Origin: a virus
Taxonomy: Duplodnaviria; Caudoviricetes
IMG/VR virus record: IMGVR_UViG_3300025711_000239
Location: 54,645-118,644 of that record
Reading direction: 5' to 3' (one strand)
Length of the DNA stretch: 64,000 bases
Shown: in pieces, positions 2,435-54,593 of the stretch
Position numbering within the stretch: position 1 is the stretch's first letter
Layout: every line of letters begins with the position of its first letter
Program-made: the position numbers and the translations under genes
Notes under the pieces: generated by a model
What the model saw: the letters and a program-made list of their open reading frames with translations, nothing else
What the model was told of the DNA's origin: nothing
The model's database searches: none

Positions 2435-3204
2435 CAGTTGCCTCCCGGTGCCAGCTGGGTGTCATAGCGGACGCTCCGGGCATCAACTTCATGCGCGGTC
2501 AGCACATCCACCATGACAATCAGCGACGCCTGGCAGGCGTAAATCCGATCCTGGGTGAACGGCGGCGACATATCGCTGAACATGATGGTTTTGGCGTCCT
2601 GAATGCTGCAGTTGATCTCAACGGGCCAGTGGACCAGCTTTTCCTGCGCCGTGAAGTTAGTGGTGAGCCGGGAGCGGAAGTTAGCGGCCAGCGTGTTGCA
2701 CATCAGTGACAGCGTATCTTTGTCACTGGCAATCAGCGTGATGGAGTAATTGAGCGAGGCCTGTGTAGCCTCAATCTGGGCCAGCGGCATATCGCCTTGT
2801 GACGGGTCGGTAAACTGGCCCAGGTTGCGGTCTATCTCCTGGTCGTTGTTGTCATAGGTGATATCAAACCCGCGAGACAGGTTGATCAGCGGCAGGGCGT
2901 CACGGTTCAGGTCTGGCATGTCCGACGCCTTCACGCTGCGGCGTCCGGCGCCCGCCTGGCGCACGGCGCGCAGAAAATCCATGACGTCATCAAACTTGCC
3001 GACGAATACACGATCTTCCGGCTTTCGCGCCAGAAATGAGCTATAGCGCTGCTCATGCTCCCGCGGCTTGGTTATGACGGCGCTGCTGAATACGTCATTC
3101 AGCGCCTTCGCTACGGCGGCGTCGGCGGCAGTAAAACCGGTACTCTCCACTTTTCCAGTGCGTGTAGTCACCCATTCACGGGTGCGGGAAAGCAGCTGAT
3201 TCAT
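2434..3204 (-). CDS. Baseplate/tail stability protein (P1 gp24-like)
   Basis: 256 aa; synteny and size; translationally coupled. Confidence 0.6.
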   Translation of the reverse strand: MNQLLSRTREWVTTRTGKVESTGFTAADAAVAKALNDVFSSAVITKPREHEQRYSSFLARKPEDRVFVGKFDDVMDFLRAVRQAGAGRRSVKASDMPDLNRDALPLINLSRGFDITYDNNDQEIDRNLGQFTDPSQGDMPLAQIEATQASLNYSITLIASDKDTLSLMCNTLAANFRSRLTTNFTAQEKLVHWPVEINCSIQDAKTIMFSDMSPPFTQDRIYACQASLIVMVDVLTAHEVDARSVRYDTQLAPGGN

Positions 3205-3986
3205 TCGATCCGTCCGTTGCTGGTGGTGTCAAAATTGCGGGCAGGAATGCAGTAGTAAAGCGATCCGACATTCTGCGTACCGAAGCCGTAAATGCGGTGA
3301 ACGTACCACCAGCGGCGTACCAGGTTGCCGCTGGCCATCTCTTCGTTCCACTCAAGGATTGAGCCAACCGGCACACCTTCAGCGGCGATGCGCAGGATCA
3401 GTACGTCGTCAGTAAATCCATCCTGTTCGCCATCGGCATCGAGCACCTGGAAACTTTCGCGCTCGTCCGGACAATCCAGCACCGTGACAATGACCGGATC
3501 AGCATCCTCATAGCTCAGGTGACGCTGGTTATTGTTGAGCTCGGTAAACGACGGCTGTTCAAAGCCCGTTTCATCGTCCACCTCGCCAACGTCGCGCATG
3601 TCCGGCAGGTATAGCAGCGCCTGAAACGCGCTGTAATCGCTCTCAATCGCTTTAATCCAGTCGCGGCGGACCATGTTGTTAAACGAGGCGTGGCCTTTGT
3701 AGCGCGGCTTTAGCGCCGTGCTCTGTTCGCGTGCCGCGAGCGTGTCCGGGAGCGGGGCGCTCAGCGGGTCATGATCCTCACTGCTATTGCTGTTAGCGTC
3801 ATCAGGACCGCCAGCGGTATCGCCATCGGGTGACGAGGCGGCGGTCGGCGCGGCGGCGTCCAGATCGATAACAGCGCTGCTGCTATCCGGCGTATCGACG
3901 GCGGAAGAGGGTTGCTCTGTTTCACTGCTGGTGGCCTCGTTGATCGTCGGTGGATTGTCGGCCAAAAATTCGTCGTACCGTCCCAT
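3201..3986 (-). CDS. Tail stability protein (P1 gp7-like)
   Basis: 261 aa with acidic low-complexity N-terminus; synteny. Confidence 0.6.
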   Translation of the reverse strand: MGRYDEFLADNPPTINEATSSETEQPSSAVDTPDSSSAVIDLDAAAPTAASSPDGDTAGGPDDANSNSSEDHDPLSAPLPDTLAAREQSTALKPRYKGHASFNNMVRRDWIKAIESDYSAFQALLYLPDMRDVGEVDDETGFEQPSFTELNNNQRHLSYEDADPVIVTVLDCPDERESFQVLDADGEQDGFTDDVLILRIAAEGVPVGSILEWNEEMASGNLVRRWWYVHRIYGFGTQNVGSLYYCIPARNFDTTSNGRIE

Positions 3987-5203
3987 TACTGATTACCTGC
4001 TTTTGTCTGGTTTTTTGCGTATTCAATAAACATCTTCTCGGCTTGGGCGCGGGGCGTGCCGCTCAGCACCAGGGCGTCAATGAACGTCTGGCGCTGGATC
4101 TTCGCCTGGTCTGCCAGCTGCTGACGCAGAAGGGCGTTTTTGGCCTTTTCGTCCGCCAGTTCCGCCTGCTTCTTCGCGGCGCGGGTGCGCTGCGCTGCGG
4201 TCAGCTTCTTGGCACGGGTCAGCTGGCCGCGCAGTTTGTCGATCCGCCCGTCGTCGTTGTCCAGGCGCTTCGCAAGCGCGCCCATGCGCTTCTGATACTT
4301 CTCATGCTCACGCTTAACAGCGGCGACGTTCGTCTGCGAACTACGGTTGCGGTTGAACTTCGCTTTGTCGGCGTCAGTGAAGTGCTCAGTGGTTTTGCGC
4401 GGGTCATCGCCATAGGCGTTGTTACTGGCGCTTTTATGCAATGCCTGGCCGATGCGCACCTGCCATGAGGCGGATTGCAGACGGGTGAAGGCGTGAATGA
4501 CGTGCTTACAGGCGACGCCTTTCAGATTCGGGTTTTTCTCTTTGGGGTAGGCGTACTCTTTTGGCGGGGCAAGCGCGAAATTGCCTGCTGTGGCGATGTA
4601 GCGATACCAGTACTGGTGACGGCCACAATCGCAATCAAAAGAGACGCGGCCAGCGCAGAGTCGCTTGGCAATTTTGGCTGCGCTGTCTTTGGCATCGGTG
4701 ATTTCCTCTATCAGCTGATCCCACTCTTCAAAGCGGAATTTCACGCGGTGATGCTTATCGAGCGAGGCGGCGGACGCCTCCACACTAACGGTCAGGACGT
4801 TATGTTTAAGCGTCGTGGGCGTGGCGCGCTTAATGCCACTTCCGTCATCTACCCGGTTGTTGGCGCGCTTAATGTCGATCTGCTGACTACCGGCCACCAG
4901 CTGCGCATACGTGATACCTGCCTGTGAAGAATTGAACTGCTGGCGGGCGCCGGCGCGATTTGCTTCGAACCCTTTCAGATCCTCTTTCGTGAAGAACGTG
5001 CCGGACTTCTTTTTGCCCAGGGCGATAATGTCGTCCAGCGCCTTGTTCTTCAGGGTCAGCGGGTTGAGCGTGCGCCGCGCTATGCGCCGGGATTTACGGC
5101 GGTCTTTATCAATCTGGTCAAAGACGCGGGAGAACTCTTTGGAGGAAAGCCCTGCCGTGTCGTAGCGCCCGGACCGTGTGCGGGCAAACGGAGTATCAGC
5201 CAC
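3986..5203 (-). CDS. Tail protein with SWIM-like Zn finger (P1 gp25-like)
   Basis: CDC...CKH motif; 405 aa; synteny. Confidence 0.65.
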   Translation of the reverse strand: MADTPFARTRSGRYDTAGLSSKEFSRVFDQIDKDRRKSRRIARRTLNPLTLKNKALDDIIALGKKKSGTFFTKEDLKGFEANRAGARQQFNSSQAGITYAQLVAGSQQIDIKRANNRVDDGSGIKRATPTTLKHNVLTVSVEASAASLDKHHRVKFRFEEWDQLIEEITDAKDSAAKIAKRLCAGRVSFDCDCGRHQYWYRYIATAGNFALAPPKEYAYPKEKNPNLKGVACKHVIHAFTRLQSASWQVRIGQALHKSASNNAYGDDPRKTTEHFTDADKAKFNRNRSSQTNVAAVKREHEKYQKRMGALAKRLDNDDGRIDKLRGQLTRAKKLTAAQRTRAAKKQAELADEKAKNALLRQQLADQAKIQRQTFIDALVLSGTPRAQAEKMFIEYAKNQTKAGNQ

Positions 5204-5528
5204 TGATTAGCTCCGGCTTGCCACCAGCAAAGTCGCGTATGCGCCCGCGCAGCCACGCCATATCGGGCAGAGAAAGCGTCTGGCCTGCTGGCAGCGGCTC
5301 CATTTCTGACTCTATTCCGCATAACAGACGGAATACCCAGCGCAGATCGTCATTACCTTCATAGGCGCGGTATGCCGCCAGGTCAGCGCGGAATATCTCG
5401 TCAAGACGGATGGTGTAGTCGCGGTTGTCTTCGTGGAATGAGGCGGATCGCTTGATCACTTCCTGATGGAAGAGGCTGCGTAGCACCACGTCACTAATTG
5501 AGCGATCGTCAAGGCGGTTATAACTCAC
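5196..5528 (-). CDS. Baseplate wedge protein (P1 gp26-like, gp53/LysM-like)
   Basis: RADLAAYRAY..LRWV..LPAGQTLSLP motif; synteny. Confidence 0.65.
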   Translation of the reverse strand: MSYNRLDDRSISDVVLRSLFHQEVIKRSASFHEDNRDYTIRLDEIFRADLAAYRAYEGNDDLRWVFRLLCGIESEMEPLPAGQTLSLPDMAWLRGRIRDFAGGKPELISG

Positions 5529-41576: not shown

Positions 41577-41873
41577 TTACAGCAGTTTCAGCGCCGTTAT
41601 GAATAAGGCAGCAGCAGTAACGATCATCAATACATTCAGCAATACAGAGGGTACTTTGATATCGCCTGACTCATACTCAGCCTGCGTCATCCGCCCTAGG
41701 TAGCTATGCGAGACCAGCACTGCGTTTTCGTCAAAGCTCAGCGTAGCCCGAACTGTCTCCAGCGCCTGACGGGATATCTGACGTGTGGCCAGCTGGACTA
41801 TTCCGGATCGCATCTTGCCGTTGTCACCCATGTAGCAGACCGTATGATAGTGAAATGGCTTGTTCTGGCCCAT
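41577..41873 (-). CDS. Small protein with C-terminal TM segment
   Basis: SYLG.MT..E motif; coupled. Confidence 0.55.
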   Translation of the reverse strand: MGQNKPFHYHTVCYMGDNGKMRSGIVQLATRQISRQALETVRATLSFDENAVLVSHSYLGRMTQAEYESGDIKVPSVLLNVLMIVTAAALFITALKLL

Positions 41874-42391
41874 TAGGCGACTTCCACCCAGTCAGTTACG
41901 CGCATATCGTTAATGCTCAGGTCGTGCATTTCCACGCCGCCGTCCGGTCGGGTCAGAATCAGCACGTCACAGCCTTCATGCTCCTGCTCAAGCGACACAA
42001 AATAACCCGCCCCCCACGCTTCCCGACGCATCAGCAATTCCGGATCTTCTTTCATTCTCAGTAAGGCCTGGTCGTAGCTGCACGTAATGGCACCGATTCC
42101 AATTTTGCTCAAACCTTCGATCTGTGCCGTTGTCATGCGTCCGCGTCCTTCTGTTAATGATTTTCTCAAGATGTAGCTAATCCCCTTCACGCCGCCGAAA
42201 TAGTTCAGCTGGCGGTTGCTCATGCCGCTGCGCGTCATAAGCTCCTGCTTCGGTACTTTGAAAATGCCGACGTCCATAGCAATGTCGGCAAAAACCGAAA
42301 GCCCCCGTCCCAAGCTGTCTCGCGTCTTATTACGGCGCGCATACTGCTCAAACGTGGGGCATCCGGTAAAAAATTGCGCATCAAAAAGCAC
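41873..42391 (-). CDS. TetR-like HTH fused to DUF2829/Tad2-like domain
   Basis: GIFKVPKQELMTRSGMSNRQLNYFGG followed by YDQAL.RMK....MRREAW...DM..TDWVEV. Confidence 0.6.
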   Translation of the reverse strand: MLFDAQFFTGCPTFEQYARRNKTRDSLGRGLSVFADIAMDVGIFKVPKQELMTRSGMSNRQLNYFGGVKGISYILRKSLTEGRGRMTTAQIEGLSKIGIGAITCSYDQALLRMKEDPELLMRREAWGAGYFVSLEQEHEGCDVLILTRPDGGVEMHDLSINDMRVTDWVEVA

Positions 42392-51137: not shown

Positions 51138-52838
51138 TTGGCTACTAAAAAAAAGGCGTTGTCCGTTTTAAGCGCATTGAGGCAGGCATTCCGGGGGGCT
51201 GCGACTGAGGCACCGCAAAGTCTCGCATGGACTAACGGGCAAAACGTGGTCGTCTCCCGCTCCGGGCTGGCGGCTATGGCGTACAACGAAGGGAAAGCGG
51301 GGGAAATGACCTCGGCTGGCGACAGTCTTTACCTGGGCGCAGAGTTGCCGCTGGACCGGCTACAACGCTATGCGATTCTGGAGGAAATGGCTAATAGCCC
51401 GACGTGCTCAGCAGCGTTAAATATCCACATTGGCCACGCACTCGCGCCGGACAAAAAAACCGGGCTGGCGTTCTCTATTATGCCGGTCGATCCGTCCGAC
51501 GCAGAAGGCGCGGCACGGGCCAAAGAGCTGCAGGATGATTTGGGCGCGATGATTAACCGGCAATTGCCGTCGCTGGCTATGACAATGGCGATTTTCGGCG
51601 TGTCCTATGTGCGCCCCTATGCCCGGTCAGGGAAAGGGATCACCAGCCTGGAAAACAGCTATTACTCGCTGCCCTATTTCATCCAGGAGTTTTACAAAGG
51701 TGATCAGCTGGTCGGCTTCGGCGGGGATTATGTGCTGTCACCCGATACCCATACCCGCACGCTGTCTACGCCGTGGTCGCTGGTCCCGATGAAAAATCCG
51801 TACTGGACACCCACGCGTAATGTGCAGCCGGTGACGTCCGGGAATCGTGGTTATTCTCTGCTGTCGGAGGAAGAGGACAAGGAAGTTGCGGAGACGCAGA
51901 ACTACGGCACCAGCTTCCTGGCGCACGCCTATGAACCCTTCCTGAATCTGGTCGGCGCGCTGAATGCGCTGAAGGCAACTCGCTACAATGCTGCCAAAAT
52001 TGACCGCCTGATTGCTCTGACTACCAATTCACTCGATCCGGTCGTTGGCGCAAACTATACCCGCACCGTCTCGCAGACGCTCAAGCGCCACGGCGAAGCA
52101 CTCCAGAAAAAAGCGGTGAACGGTAACACCATGCCAACCGTGATGAACCATGTGATCCCGGTAATGGGTGACGGCAAAAACGGGATTACGATCGACACGC
52201 AGTCGATACCCGCGGACATTACCGGCATCGAGGACGTGATGTTTCACCTGCGCCAGCTGTGCGCCGCGCTCGGTATCGACTCAACAATGCTGGGCTGGGC
52301 CGATCAGATGGCAGGCGGGCTGGGTGAAGGCGGCTGGATACAGACGGCCATTCAGGCGGCACTCCGGGCGCAGTGGCTCAGACAGGGTGCGCAGGAAATG
52401 ATTTACCGCTTGATAGACATTCATTTGGCCTTCAAATACGGCAAGGTGTACCCGGTCAACGATCGTCCATATGTCGTTCAGTTCATTTCAATGAACACCG
52501 CAATTCAGGAGGAAGAAAGCCGTGAAATGGATGCCCGCGCCAATTTCATTACCCTAATGGTGCAGGTCATGGACGCACTTCAGGCGAATAACAAGCTGGC
52601 GGAAAACGACACGTTCATGCGCTACCTGTTCAGCGATCAGCTGAAGATGGACGGCGGCACGCTCGACAAGATGCTGGCAGAGTTTGAGAAGAGCAGGAAG
52701 AAGGCGGACGCGCAGGAGGATGAAGGCGGTGGAGGTGGCATGATGAATGAATCAGCACCTGACAACATCGATCCGGCCAGTTGGACACATGACGAACTCG
52801 TAGCCTTTGCTCGTTATGTAACCTCGCCCGACAAATAG
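51138..52838 (+). CDS. prt: Portal protein
   Basis: 566 aa, divergent from darB and followed by the protease, as in P1. Confidence 0.8.
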   Translation: MATKKKALSVLSALRQAFRGAATEAPQSLAWTNGQNVVVSRSGLAAMAYNEGKAGEMTSAGDSLYLGAELPLDRLQRYAILEEMANSPTCSAALNIHIGHALAPDKKTGLAFSIMPVDPSDAEGAARAKELQDDLGAMINRQLPSLAMTMAIFGVSYVRPYARSGKGITSLENSYYSLPYFIQEFYKGDQLVGFGGDYVLSPDTHTRTLSTPWSLVPMKNPYWTPTRNVQPVTSGNRGYSLLSEEEDKEVAETQNYGTSFLAHAYEPFLNLVGALNALKATRYNAAKIDRLIALTTNSLDPVVGANYTRTVSQTLKRHGEALQKKAVNGNTMPTVMNHVIPVMGDGKNGITIDTQSIPADITGIEDVMFHLRQLCAALGIDSTMLGWADQMAGGLGEGGWIQTAIQAALRAQWLRQGAQEMIYRLIDIHLAFKYGKVYPVNDRPYVVQFISMNTAIQEEESREMDARANFITLMVQVMDALQANNKLAENDTFMRYLFSDQLKMDGGTLDKMLAEFEKSRKKADAQEDEGGGGGMMNESAPDNIDPASWTHDELVAFARYVTSPDK

Positions 52839-52902
52839 AGTCAGGTTAAATATTACTCATAGCCGCCCTTGAGCTAATCAATACGCGGCTATTTCAACCT
52901 TT

Positions 52903-53160
52903 TCAGTGAAGCAGCGAAATAACCTGCCAGTCAGCTGACAAAATATCTTCAGGCGTTGGATCATATATTGATAACTCGCCGGACTCGCCCATGAATATAA
53001 ATTGCATCTGACTATCTGAATCGGCCTGCGTGAATACGTGAATAGGTGTATCGCCCCATTTTGCACGGCGACAGATAGTACTGTCAGTCAGGCTTATGGC
53101 AAGCATGGCATTGGCGAACCTAAGCACCGCCTGGGATGGCGTATAAGAGATATCAGGCAT
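52903..53160 (-). CDS. Stand-alone DUF2829/Tad2-like protein
   Basis: FANAM....RRAKW...YDPTPEDILSADWQVI; SD GAGGAG. Confidence 0.7.
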   Translation of the reverse strand: MPDISYTPSQAVLRFANAMLAISLTDSTICRRAKWGDTPIHVFTQADSDSQMQFIFMGESGELSIYDPTPEDILSADWQVISLLH

Positions 53161-53215
53161 GGAGTGCTCCTCGTACTGAAAGAAGCGTCACTACTGGAGG
53201 TTCCAAGCTCCGGGT

Positions 53216-53291
53216 GGTGACGTTGACAGGGTTGGAACTACCGGCGTACGAGGAGACCGGCCTACCCGAAGGTAGCCCCGCCAACGCCACC
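53216..53291 (-). ncRNA. C4-family antisense RNA
   Basis: Cloverleaf GGTGGCGTTGGCGG..CTACC-TTCG-GGTAG..CCGG-TCTCCTCGTACG-CCGG-TAGTTCCAA..CTGTCAACGTCACC, with complementary targets on both sides. Confidence 0.85.
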
Positions 53292-53402
53292 ATTGAAACA
53301 TCTGGCAAACACCAGACGTGGTAGCGCCGGAGGCACTAAGTGCCTCCTCGTACTTTCGTTCGGGGTTCCAATCCCGACCACTGTTTATGCAGTGGCGCGC
53401 AC

Positions 53403-53430
53403 ACTATATCCGCGATGCGGATAAATTCAA
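53403..53430 (-). promoter_or_regulatory. Sigma70 promoter for the c4 module
   Basis: TTGAAT-N16-TATAGT with operator motif A adjacent (53439-53461). Confidence 0.6.
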
Positions 53431-53497
53431 TATTTCTAATATGAAATTATCCAGTGGTTATTAGATCCACTGATAACCAAAGAATCGCTAACCCCAT

Positions 53498-53588: not shown

Positions 53589-54593
53589 ATGGAAGCACTC
53601 CGCACGGTAACGGATCGTTTTTCATTGATTGATAAAATTCGTCGGTTTACACCACAAAACGACCGCAACTACCTGCTGCGATCTGTTCGTGAAACGTTCG
53701 CCAGCCCCGAAACTCAGGAGCGTATTCAGCTGGGGGAAATGTTCGGCTATTACGGCCACGGACGCCGCGCCGCCTACTACGCAAAGACTGGACGGCTTAA
53801 CCTGCCGGAATTTGCGGTTGTGATGATTGATGGTAAGCCAGTGACACTGGAAAACGTGCCGTCGAACCGCACTCTGGATGCCAGCGTGGATGATAACGGC
53901 ATCGTGACTCACGTTCAGGAGATTCTGGATACCGAACCCGGCAATATCGTTGACGGCATGAACCGCTCACGCGCTGGTGGCTGGTCCTGGGCTACTGGCG
54001 GCGACGATAACGCCATTTCGAAAGTGACTAGCTTCCACGGCTTCGACTATGTGACGAACCCAAATTATATCAGTCAGGACCACCCTGCTCTGCTTCTGGA
54101 ATCGGCCAGCGAACGAGCCGACATGATGCACGCGGGCTTAATAGAAAAGGGATATTCGGAGAATCAGGCTGCTGACATTATTCAACACTTTGAAACCCTG
54201 CGTAGCCAGACAGCAATGCTGGAGTCCGTGGATTTTTCACTGCTGGAGTCTGCGCTGCATATTGAGCACGGTAAGCGTCTGGAGGTAGAGGAACGTCTGC
54301 GAAACGCTCAGCTAATGCTCGAAAGTGCTGGCACCGTGGCAAAGGCCCGTCGCCGGATCATGAAGGATGCGCTGGCTAACATGCCGCTGTTTTTAAGTAA
54401 AGTTCAGCAGGCGGCATTATGCCGGATGGACACGCCGGAAGACGCGCAGATCGTCGCTGCAATGCTGGAATCAATCGGCACAAATGCGACGGCTACACTG
54501 CCGATCGGCACCGCCCACCAGCACACATTACCGCAGACGCGCCCGCCAGCTGTGGACTCAACACCACTGCTGTGGATCAACCCAAGAAAATAA
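53589..54593 (+). CDS. pro: Head-processing protease
   Basis: GYYGHGRR, GGWSWA and GFDYV..PN motifs; synteny. Confidence 0.8.
   Translation: MEALRTVTDRFSLIDKIRRFTPQNDRNYLLRSVRETFASPETQERIQLGEMFGYYGHGRRAAYYAKTGRLNLPEFAVVMIDGKPVTLENVPSNRTLDASVDDNGIVTHVQEILDTEPGNIVDGMNRSRAGGWSWATGGDDNAISKVTSFHGFDYVTNPNYISQDHPALLLESASERADMMHAGLIEKGYSENQAADIIQHFETLRSQTAMLESVDFSLLESALHIEHGKRLEVEERLRNAQLMLESAGTVAKARRRIMKDALANMPLFLSKVQQAALCRMDTPEDAQIVAAMLESIGTNATATLPIGTAHQHTLPQTRPPAVDSTPLLWINPRK

Follow-up and report, generated by a model that had tools for sequence, protein, structure and literature searches.

The 64-kb window analysed here, a single stretch of a phage record in IMG/VR (IMGVR_UViG_3300025711_000239), carries on its minus strand a short cassette in which a C4 antisense RNA gene stands immediately before an 85-amino-acid (85-aa) open reading frame (ORF) of predicted Tad2-like fold. 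We read this cassette, with a probability of about one half, as the immI-type immunity cassette of a Pantoea P1/D6-like phage-plasmid, reduced to one cargo gene that is gated by C4 and encodes a probable signal binder. The parts of this reading are not equally firm: control of the ORF by C4 seems very probable, and a role of its product as a signal sponge, predicted from family, fold and pocket residues, is put forward tentatively, at slightly short of even odds.

The C4 RNA and its paired targets

The covariance search that an earlier note on this sequence had proposed returned a full-length match to the Rfam C4 family (RF01695; model positions 1-87 of 87) at 81.8 bits (gathering score 45; E 1.7e-14), the sole Rfam match in the window. 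The minimum-free-energy (MFE) fold consists of a 17-bp closing stem and two hairpins (z -4.6), with CUCCUCGUAC as the exact 10-nt loop of the second hairpin and GUUCCAA in an unpaired joint. Both pairing elements are unpaired in this fold, which has two hairpins and is not the true cloverleaf of the earlier note.

Following the site names used for P1/P7 immI, we call the targets of these two elements a and b. Two exact target pairs flank C4, a1/b1 on one side and a2/b2 on the other, and both had been placed correctly, to the base, before this analysis. All four sites in the window are perfect complements, over 7 and 10 nt respectively. The sequence GTACGAGGAG occurs three times in the 64 kb (the two targets and the complement of the loop) against 0.05 expected, and for the spaced pair TTGGAAC-N(8-30)-GTACGAGGAG two occurrences compare with 0.00 expected. 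The claim that the last target is the Shine-Dalgarno (SD) sequence of the 85-aa ORF also held, as the GGAG at 53167-53170 lies inside b2, 6 nt ahead of the ATG at 53160. The separate Rfam c4-a1b1 model stays below its gathering score in this window and reaches it in phage D6.

We compared the cassette with 11 related loci, comprising plasmids (L004, L005, L010 and L014), genome contigs (L011-L013) and viral or metagenome contigs (L017-L020; L018 is the same contig as L021). In all 11, a C4 scoring 81.8-85.4 bits immediately precedes a homologous ORF, and in the more distant loci C4 is retained despite protein identities down to 29-49%. In seven of 10 cassettes the ATG lies 49 nt from C4 (for L012 the first ATG was taken). 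Four loop types are found across the window and these loci: CUCCUCGUAC (type A; the window, L014, L011 and L012), which faces a b2 of GTACGAGGAG except in L012, where b2 is of type B; UUUCUUGUGC (L004, L005 and L013), facing GCACA(A/G)GGAG; UUCCUCGUAC (L017 and L019), facing GTA(C/T)GGGGA; and UCCCUUGUAC (L020), facing GTACAGGGA.

Across a 10-row alignment (A6), 96.5% of the 170 loop/target cells form standard pairs, compared with 34.7-48.2% when the partners are slid by 1-3 columns. Double-sided changes are present at two pairs (C-G to U-A in four rows; A-U to G-C in three), and none of 500 shuffles reached the observed percent paired, the number of double-change cells or the covariation score. 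The b1/loop pairing was judged by duplex energies, type-B rows being offset by two columns in A6. Loop A is predicted to bind its own b2 at -18.2 kcal/mol and the type-B b2 at -7.5, and most non-cognate duplexes are less stable than cognate ones. From these sequence comparisons, both the presence of a genuine C4/immI-type antisense switch and the maintenance of loop-to-SD pairing through compensatory changes in the relatives appear supported.

The cargo gene and its Tad2-like fold

Judged by its substitution pattern, the 85-aa ORF is a real gene under purifying selection: the ratio of nonsynonymous to synonymous rates (dN/dS) is 0.11-0.47 in all 15 pairs among six copies, with dS mostly above 1. 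When the window is compared with plasmid CP009882.1, the side of the cassette from C4 to pro aligns at 82.8% DNA identity, the ORF body is left unaligned and the two proteins are 45% identical, so that the ORF is diverging faster than its flanks.

The assignment of the ORF to the DUF2829/Tad2-like family, made in the earlier note, was upheld by two approaches. The protein matches Pfam PF11195 (Tad2-like) at 29.3 bits (cut-off 25), as do two relatives at 29.4 and 29.6 bits, and its AlphaFold2 (AF2) model, with a mean predicted local distance difference test (pLDDT) score of 90.2, shows the Tad2 arrangement of an N-terminal helix plus an antiparallel sheet. With this model as the query, Tad2 structures (SPO1, Myroides, SptTad2 and HgmTad2/AcrIIA7) fill every Foldseek rank from 1 to 24, with query-normalised template-modelling (TM) scores of 0.61-0.66; eight matches have E<=0.001, and identity to the solved chains is 10-18%. 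A word-based search found eight close proteins, all from Pantoea-type sources, two of which NCBI names 'Thoeris anti-defense Tad2 family protein'.

The subfamily alignment (A3) has 20 rows; seven of 20 profile matches were left out of it, namely six long proteins (697-1223 aa) that matched over several short segments and a seventh of 221 aa. Residues A18, C30, R31, R32, W35, H41, G61, P68, D77 and W78 are invariant. Searched against sequences in the PDB, the A3 profile has four Tad2 chains at the top (E 0.013-0.061) and HgmTad2/AcrIIA7 in fifth place. The main ligand contacts of SPO1 Tad2 are described as W25, W73, N26 and D79 (10.1101/2023.05.01.538930). In a HMMER alignment W25, W73 and D79 fall on W35 (invariant), Y66 and D72 (nearly invariant) of the ORF; that is, three of these four contacts are kept or conservatively replaced. 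The ORF resembles the known Tad2 proteins (SPO1 Gp34.65, ModTad2, HgmTad2/AcrIIA7 and SptTad2) in matching PF11195 above the cut-off, in its helix plus beta-sheet fold, in its putative counterparts of W25, W73 (as Tyr) and D79, and in a C-terminal D-W motif; it differs in having G in place of N26 and an invariant C-R-R and His of its own. The assembly characteristic of Tad2 is a homotetramer that has two pockets between protomers. Reported ligands of Tad2 homologues are diverse and include 3'cADPR, His-ADPR, cyclic dinucleotides and cUMP/cCMP (10.1101/2025.08.24.671296); membership of the family therefore cannot give the ligand of the ORF.

Several searches returned little. The ORF had no tblastn match among 50,697 phage records, fell into no NCBIfam family and matched nothing in PADLOC; as a single sequence it gave only chance matches to designed ankyrin repeats among PDB sequences, and in PHROGs only a weak match to a 'transcriptional regulator' family (E 0.087). 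No convincing intrinsic terminator was found 3' of the ORF; sites like the weak hairpin within its last codons (Table 1) number two in the region against 0.9 expected in the terminator consensus scan, which is not significant.

The cassette in its phage-plasmid

The window is, by sequence, part of a P1/D6-type phage-plasmid of Pantoea agglomerans. Identity is 99.9% to plasmid NZ_CP134741.1 (94 kb) and 93% to two others, all three from P. agglomerans. The annotation of these plasmids is P1-like, listing RepB, ParM, terminase, a late promoter activator, ddrA and a DarB-like SNF2 protein, together with portal, head-processing and tail genes. The head processing protease Pro is 58% identical to that of Escherichia phage D6, the closest sequenced phage, and 44% identical to those of P1 and P7. 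The genome record that contains the window is 118.6 kb long, is classed as a provirus and exceeds the 94-kb plasmid by 24 kb.

The portal and protease genes (prt and pro) of phages D6 and P1 are immediate neighbours. In the Pantoea window they are 750 bp apart, and the gap holds the cassette on the opposite strand, bearing out the claim that the module lies antisense between portal and protease. The D6 order is prt, pro, repL, a1b1, C4, icd, ant (Roi/Rha-like) and orf17, followed by a hydrolase gene on the opposite strand; in Pantoea, the gene after pro is RepL-like (31% identity over 134 residues), and a lysozyme gene comes directly after that. The immI block is thus absent from its D6 position, and a shorter, inverted one lies between prt and pro.

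Each of the three whole Pantoea plasmids has a single C4, at the prt-pro site. D6 Icd and D6 Ant found no match in any of the three, in searches run without a positive control, and the Pfam families ANT, Bro-N and Phage_pRha likewise gave none there, D6 serving as a control with two Phage_pRha matches. These negatives cover antirepressors of the D6-type Ant, ANT, Rha and Bro-N kinds; Coi and P1 Ant1/2 were not searched for. With this C4 the only one in the plasmid, and with neither icd nor an antirepressor gene turned up by these searches, the cassette fills the immI role itself and is not an extra module. The sole ORF after C4 is the Tad2-like one, in agreement with the earlier proposal that such a gene stands here instead of icd and ant, and the usual immI cargo of icd followed by ant is thus missing from the cassette. 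In P1, C4 is described as required for full repression of ant, with icd and ant behind it (PMC8198154).

The likeness to P1/P7 immI is in layout. A C4-family RNA shares a transcript with its targets, site pairs flank the RNA gene on both sides, the first ORF has its ribosome-binding site within the last of these sites, and an operator or operator-like motif of repressor type adjoins the promoter; the differences are the cargo, one Tad2-fold gene in Pantoea, and the position of the cassette on the opposite strand between prt and pro. D6 immI (MF356679.1) shares the series a1/b1, C4, a2 and b2, the last on the SD of the first ORF: its loops CGUAAGU and CUGUCAA are matched by the pair TTGACAG/ACTTACG ahead of C4 and by a second copy behind it, where b2 lies on the icd GAGG. 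It differs in that icd and ant stand between C4 and a small gene, its loop sequences are unrelated to those of Pantoea, and its cassette follows repL on the same strand as pro. The D6 C4 scores 69.6 bits, compared with 81.8 in the window.

The small gene of D6 (orf17; L006 8507-8704) encodes 65 aa and is the last of the C4-icd-ant operon, its start overlapping the ant stop. It has C-R-R..W and D-W motifs in common with the ORF and gives an hhalign E of 9.5e-5 (probability 58.7%); its Pfam Tad2-like score, 15.2 bits, is below the cut-off, and 27 of its 30 Atlas neighbours are Tad2-like, at a recognition value under the mark. On these comparisons orf17 is probably a shrunken, Tad2-like relative of the ORF. 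Loss of icd and ant from an operon that already held a Tad2-like gene is then as likely an origin of the Pantoea cassette as rewiring to a new cargo.

Control at the transcriptional level is suggested by the sequence upstream. Both the operator motif (motif A) and the promoter that the earlier reading had placed ahead of the targets were found, the former as a copy at 53443-53456 on the minus strand, the latter as TTGAAT-16-TATAGT (53430-53403). Motif A is present in the window in seven exact and four one-mismatch copies, 11 in all against 1.98 expected (none of 100 shuffles reached 11), mostly ahead of operons; it differs from the P1 C1 operator. The cassette copy and both promoter hexamers are conserved in all seven aligned relatives. 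A 17-nt stretch at 53455-53471 resembles the P1 C1 operator; it is unique in the window, and we do not regard it as an operator. Immediately upstream of the promoter lies a direct repeat, CAGTGGAT (53463-53472) and CACTGGAT (53447-53456) on the minus strand, 16 nt apart; its second copy belongs to motif A, both copies are conserved in relatives, and the repeat may be a double repressor site.

Within the leader, the predicted 5' hairpin is retained in L005 and L013 with a change on both sides, CCGCTG pairing with CAGCGG. The GGAGG that forms the 3' half of b1 lies within a conserved hairpin of the leader fold, GGAGGCAC-UUA-GUGCCUCC (window 53334-53350, minus strand), and this predicted structure could tune the competition of b1 for C4. 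Contigs from RNA libraries cover C4 in three of four runs, from three studies (presence only). Two of these contigs, from different studies, share an end point, 53374, some 20 nt past the expected start, which is a weak hint in favour of the promoter; one of them extends through C4 into the ORF, to 52977. Run X18 has no contig over C4 or the ORF, and 52764-52968 is uncovered in every run, gaps of this kind being uninformative.

Table 1. Coordinates, within the 64-kb window, of the cassette features and of the genes discussed with them
Feature	Position	Strand	Remarks
Operator-like motif A copy (GAAATnnnCCASTG, + strand spelling)	53443..53456	-	12 nt upstream of the -35 hexamer; presumed repressor site
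Sigma-70-like promoter TTGAAT-16-TATAGT	53403..53430	-	9/12 consensus matches
5' leader hairpin CCACUG-loop-CAGUGG	53378..53395	-	predicted fold
Target a1 TTGGAAC	53365..53371	-	complementary to C4 joint GUUCCAA; invariant in 10/10 cassettes
Target b1 GTACGAGGAG	53344..53353	-	complementary to C4 hairpin loop; co-changes with the loop in other loop types
C4 antisense RNA gene, 88 nt	53210..53297	-	Rfam RF01695; b' loop 53246-53255, a' GUUCCAA 53231-53237
Target a2 TTGGAAC	53200..53206	-	helix 2: 98.6% of cells paired
Target b2 GTACGAGGAG	53167..53176	-	helix 1: 95% of cells paired; 2 double-change pairs, in 7 cells
85-aa Tad2-fold ORF	52903..53160	-	sole cargo of the cassette in this window
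Weak terminator-like hairpin	52923..52942	-	within last ORF codons; 8 pairs, 3 G-C, tail TTATTTCGCT
Portal gene prt	51138..52838	+	flank, convergent with the ORF, 64-nt gap; annotated as phage portal protein in the 99.9% identical plasmid
Head processing protease gene pro	53589..54593	+	flank, divergent from the C4 promoter
Tad2-like protein, 194 aa	36041-36625	-	PF11195 44.3 bits, C-terminal
HTH-Tad2 protein, 172 aa	41873-42391	-	PF11195 26.0 bits, behind a probable DNA-binding domain

Some relatives carry further genes at this site. In the IMG/VR contig L017, a Septu-like defence pair (2862-5257) lies 3' of the C4/Tad2-like cassette on the same strand and comprises a PtuA/PDC-M01A ATPase (E 1.9e-172) and an HNH partner, PDC-M01B (E 2.4e-91), suggesting that the prt-pro gap is a variable cargo slot headed by the C4 cassette. 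A second small gene, absent from the window, follows the Tad2-like ORF in L004 (2926-3234) and L005 (3298-3777); the products, of 102 or 159 aa, have a common N-terminus (MxKAxKxYVS) and Cys pairs, and find no family match in Pfam, NCBIfam or PADLOC. The genome record that contains the window has a second C4 (78.2 bits) 47 kb outside it, at G000:C1:7603-7690 (L003). The loops of this C4 are unrelated, and the P4-like element to which it belongs also carries, close by, genes for an AlpA-like protein and a primase and an Icd/Ash-like ORF.

Two RefSeq labels attached to parts of the cassette, 'type I TA system toxin' (TA, toxin-antitoxin) and 'ash family protein', look wrong. In L010 (CP060164.1), a coding sequence called 'ash family protein' (4027-4167) overlies the C4 RNA gene (4084-4171), an apparent mis-call of the RNA gene, and the same label lies over the C4 match in many Escherichia coli P1-like plasmids. 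CP060164.1 itself is labelled Acinetobacter venetianus, and its gene coordinates are nearly identical to those of the Pantoea plasmid L004.

Proposed mechanism and competing explanations

We propose that the sigma-70 promoter would give one transcript, made up of a leader with a1/b1 as decoys, the 88-nt C4, a2/b2 and the ORF. In P1, mature C4 is released from its precursor by RNase P, and a similar release may operate here. The loop CUCCUCGUAC and the unpaired GUUCCAA would then bind b2 and a2, burying the GGAG and blocking translation, while the operator-like motif beside the promoter would add a transcriptional layer. By analogy with P1, a phage entering a cell without a C4 pool would have its first transcripts translated, and the gene would fall silent as C4 accumulates and in the lysogen; C4 made by a resident plasmid would also shut off this gene in any newly arriving phage that shares its loop type. 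The cargo is a divergent DUF2829 member whose most probable function would be to capture a small signalling nucleotide of a host defence system (Thoeris, CBASS or Pycsar type). We infer the burst-then-silence timing from P1, and the processing, the ligand and the anti-defence effect are likewise inferred. Silencing in the lysogen would make sense because a sponge would also disarm the signal-based defence of the host against other phages. Aca-controlled anti-CRISPR operons, in which a counter-defence gene is soon shut down by a regulator of the same operon, offer a parallel in working only, without homology: there a DNA-binding protein acts on transcription, whereas here an RNA is proposed to act on translation.

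A number of observations weigh against this proposal. On the side of C4, two of the five covariation measures are not above shuffles (pairs with a double change, 287/500; further pair types, 500/500), and the rows of A6 are close kin, so that few events, not many, are counted. Loop B is predicted to bind its own target at -13.5 kcal/mol and the type-A target at -11.5; since the two are nearly equal, specificity would be one-sided. In L012 (2923-3030; a contig of Pantoea sp. GD03673) the cassette is a hybrid, with a type-A loop and b1, a type-B b2 and an a2 with one change (TTGGAAG), and its ORF closes after 18 codons and continues in another frame, indicating that the link between C4 and the ORF can decay. 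The RNA-library contigs cannot give strand, ends or level, and may include DNA carry-over. On the side of the sponge, the PF11195 score of the ORF is only 4 bits over the cut-off; the subfamily is tiny, with 20 proteins at E<=0.001 in an exhaustive profile search of 1.84 billion representatives; the invariant C30-R31-R32 and H41 are not aligned to like residues in the Tad2 PDB chains; and SPO1 N26 corresponds to G36. In addition, the plasmid of the window encodes two more Tad2-like domains (Table 1), and the ORF occupies exactly the antirepressor position of P1 and D6.

Some of these observations fit a different role for the same gene, in which the Tad2-fold protein serves as the immunity circuit's own effector, either (i) replacing or partnering the antirepressor, for example by binding a C1-type repressor or the HTH-Tad2 fusion, or (ii) acting as a ligand-sensing co-regulator of the lysis-lysogeny switch; C4 would then serve superinfection immunity, as in P1/P7. 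We regard this as unlikely, with a chance that is far from negligible. The sole C4 of all three plasmids, in which no icd, D6-type Ant, ANT, Rha or Bro-N was found, speaks for such a role, as do the candidate shrunken Tad2-like gene that closes the C4-icd-ant operon of D6 and, in the same plasmid as the ORF, the fusion of a Tad2-like domain to a probable DNA-binding domain. P1 and P7 are heteroimmune, and the four loop/target types recall this; they make best sense if what an incoming phage expresses is of consequence for the resident one. The sponge fold with its three retained or conservatively replaced ligand contacts points the other way, the ORF has no sequence likeness to known antirepressors and no BLAST likeness to the HTH-Tad2 protein, and any interaction with the repressor network is putative. 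P1-type phages are, moreover, described as having a second antirepressor route, Coi (PMC8198154), which was not searched for here. Three Tad2-like domain genes are found in each of the three Pantoea plasmids, and D6 has two above the cut-off. We had considered the ORF and the HTH-Tad2 protein (41873-42391) as recent paralogues, and dropped this idea when BLASTP gave no alignment between them.

Most type I TA pairs have their RNA antitoxin and its target on separate transcripts. An addiction module of a related kind, with the 85-aa protein as toxin and C4 as RNA antitoxin stabilising the plasmid prophage, would account for a small ORF that is translationally blocked by an antisense RNA on a low-copy plasmid, and for the RefSeq name 'MW1434 family type I TA system toxin' carried by the 93% identical and P. 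eucalypti copies. That name traces to a list of predicted Staphylococcus aureus toxins that includes no test of MW1434 (PMC6266405), and the protein matches no NCBIfam model; newer RefSeq names of relatives are 'Thoeris anti-defense Tad2 family protein'. As the protein is predicted to have a soluble alpha/beta Tad2 fold and is not a small hydrophobic membrane peptide, and as a single transcript supplies both C4 and its target here, we consider an addiction module very unlikely. Extremely unlikely, in our estimate, is that C4 is a non-regulating relic of an icd-ant operon and that the ORF is constitutive or governed by its repressor-controlled promoter alone: icd and ant are indeed gone, and b2 is mismatched in L012, but the C4 scores at least as well as that of D6 (81.8 against 69.6 bits), the four targets in the window are perfect, loops and targets have changed in a compensatory manner across relatives, and the 49-nt distance from C4 to the ATG is fixed in seven of 10 cassettes.

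A more far-reaching possibility, which we rate as rather improbable, is that C4 is a weapon of phage against phage and that, through the Tad2-fold protein, the immunity circuit is coupled to immune signalling in the host. A resident C4 pool would then silence, in trans, a counter-defence or antirepressor-like gene of an incoming relative, leaving the invader disarmed, and escape of invaders by joint changes in loop and target would explain the four specificity types. In its boldest form, at which the HTH-Tad2 fusion and the ant-coupled mini-Tad2 of D6 hint, the Tad2-fold protein would be a ligand-sensing immI effector that binds a defence second messenger and acts on the repressor network, and the alarm state of the host would be read by the lysis-lysogeny decision.

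Our preferred reading remains that of a C4-gated cassette with a probable signal binder as its cargo. We found no paper joining C4 antisense RNA with Tad2, Thoeris or anti-defence, and no report of a known Tad2 under antisense-RNA control, in a literature search that covered few subscription journals and no supplements. The timing of phage counter-defence is known mainly from anti-CRISPR operons with protein repressors; if the reading is correct, gating of a Tad2-family gene by antisense RNA would add a second solution to this problem, one based on RNA and set within a classic and well-understood switch. Since icd and ant have been lost and C4 has been kept with co-evolving targets, the remaining cargo must be the reason for keeping the immunity RNA. 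This suggests that either (i) a sponge needs control of the immunity type, or (ii) a Tad2-fold protein has taken over an immunity role, and both answers would be new.

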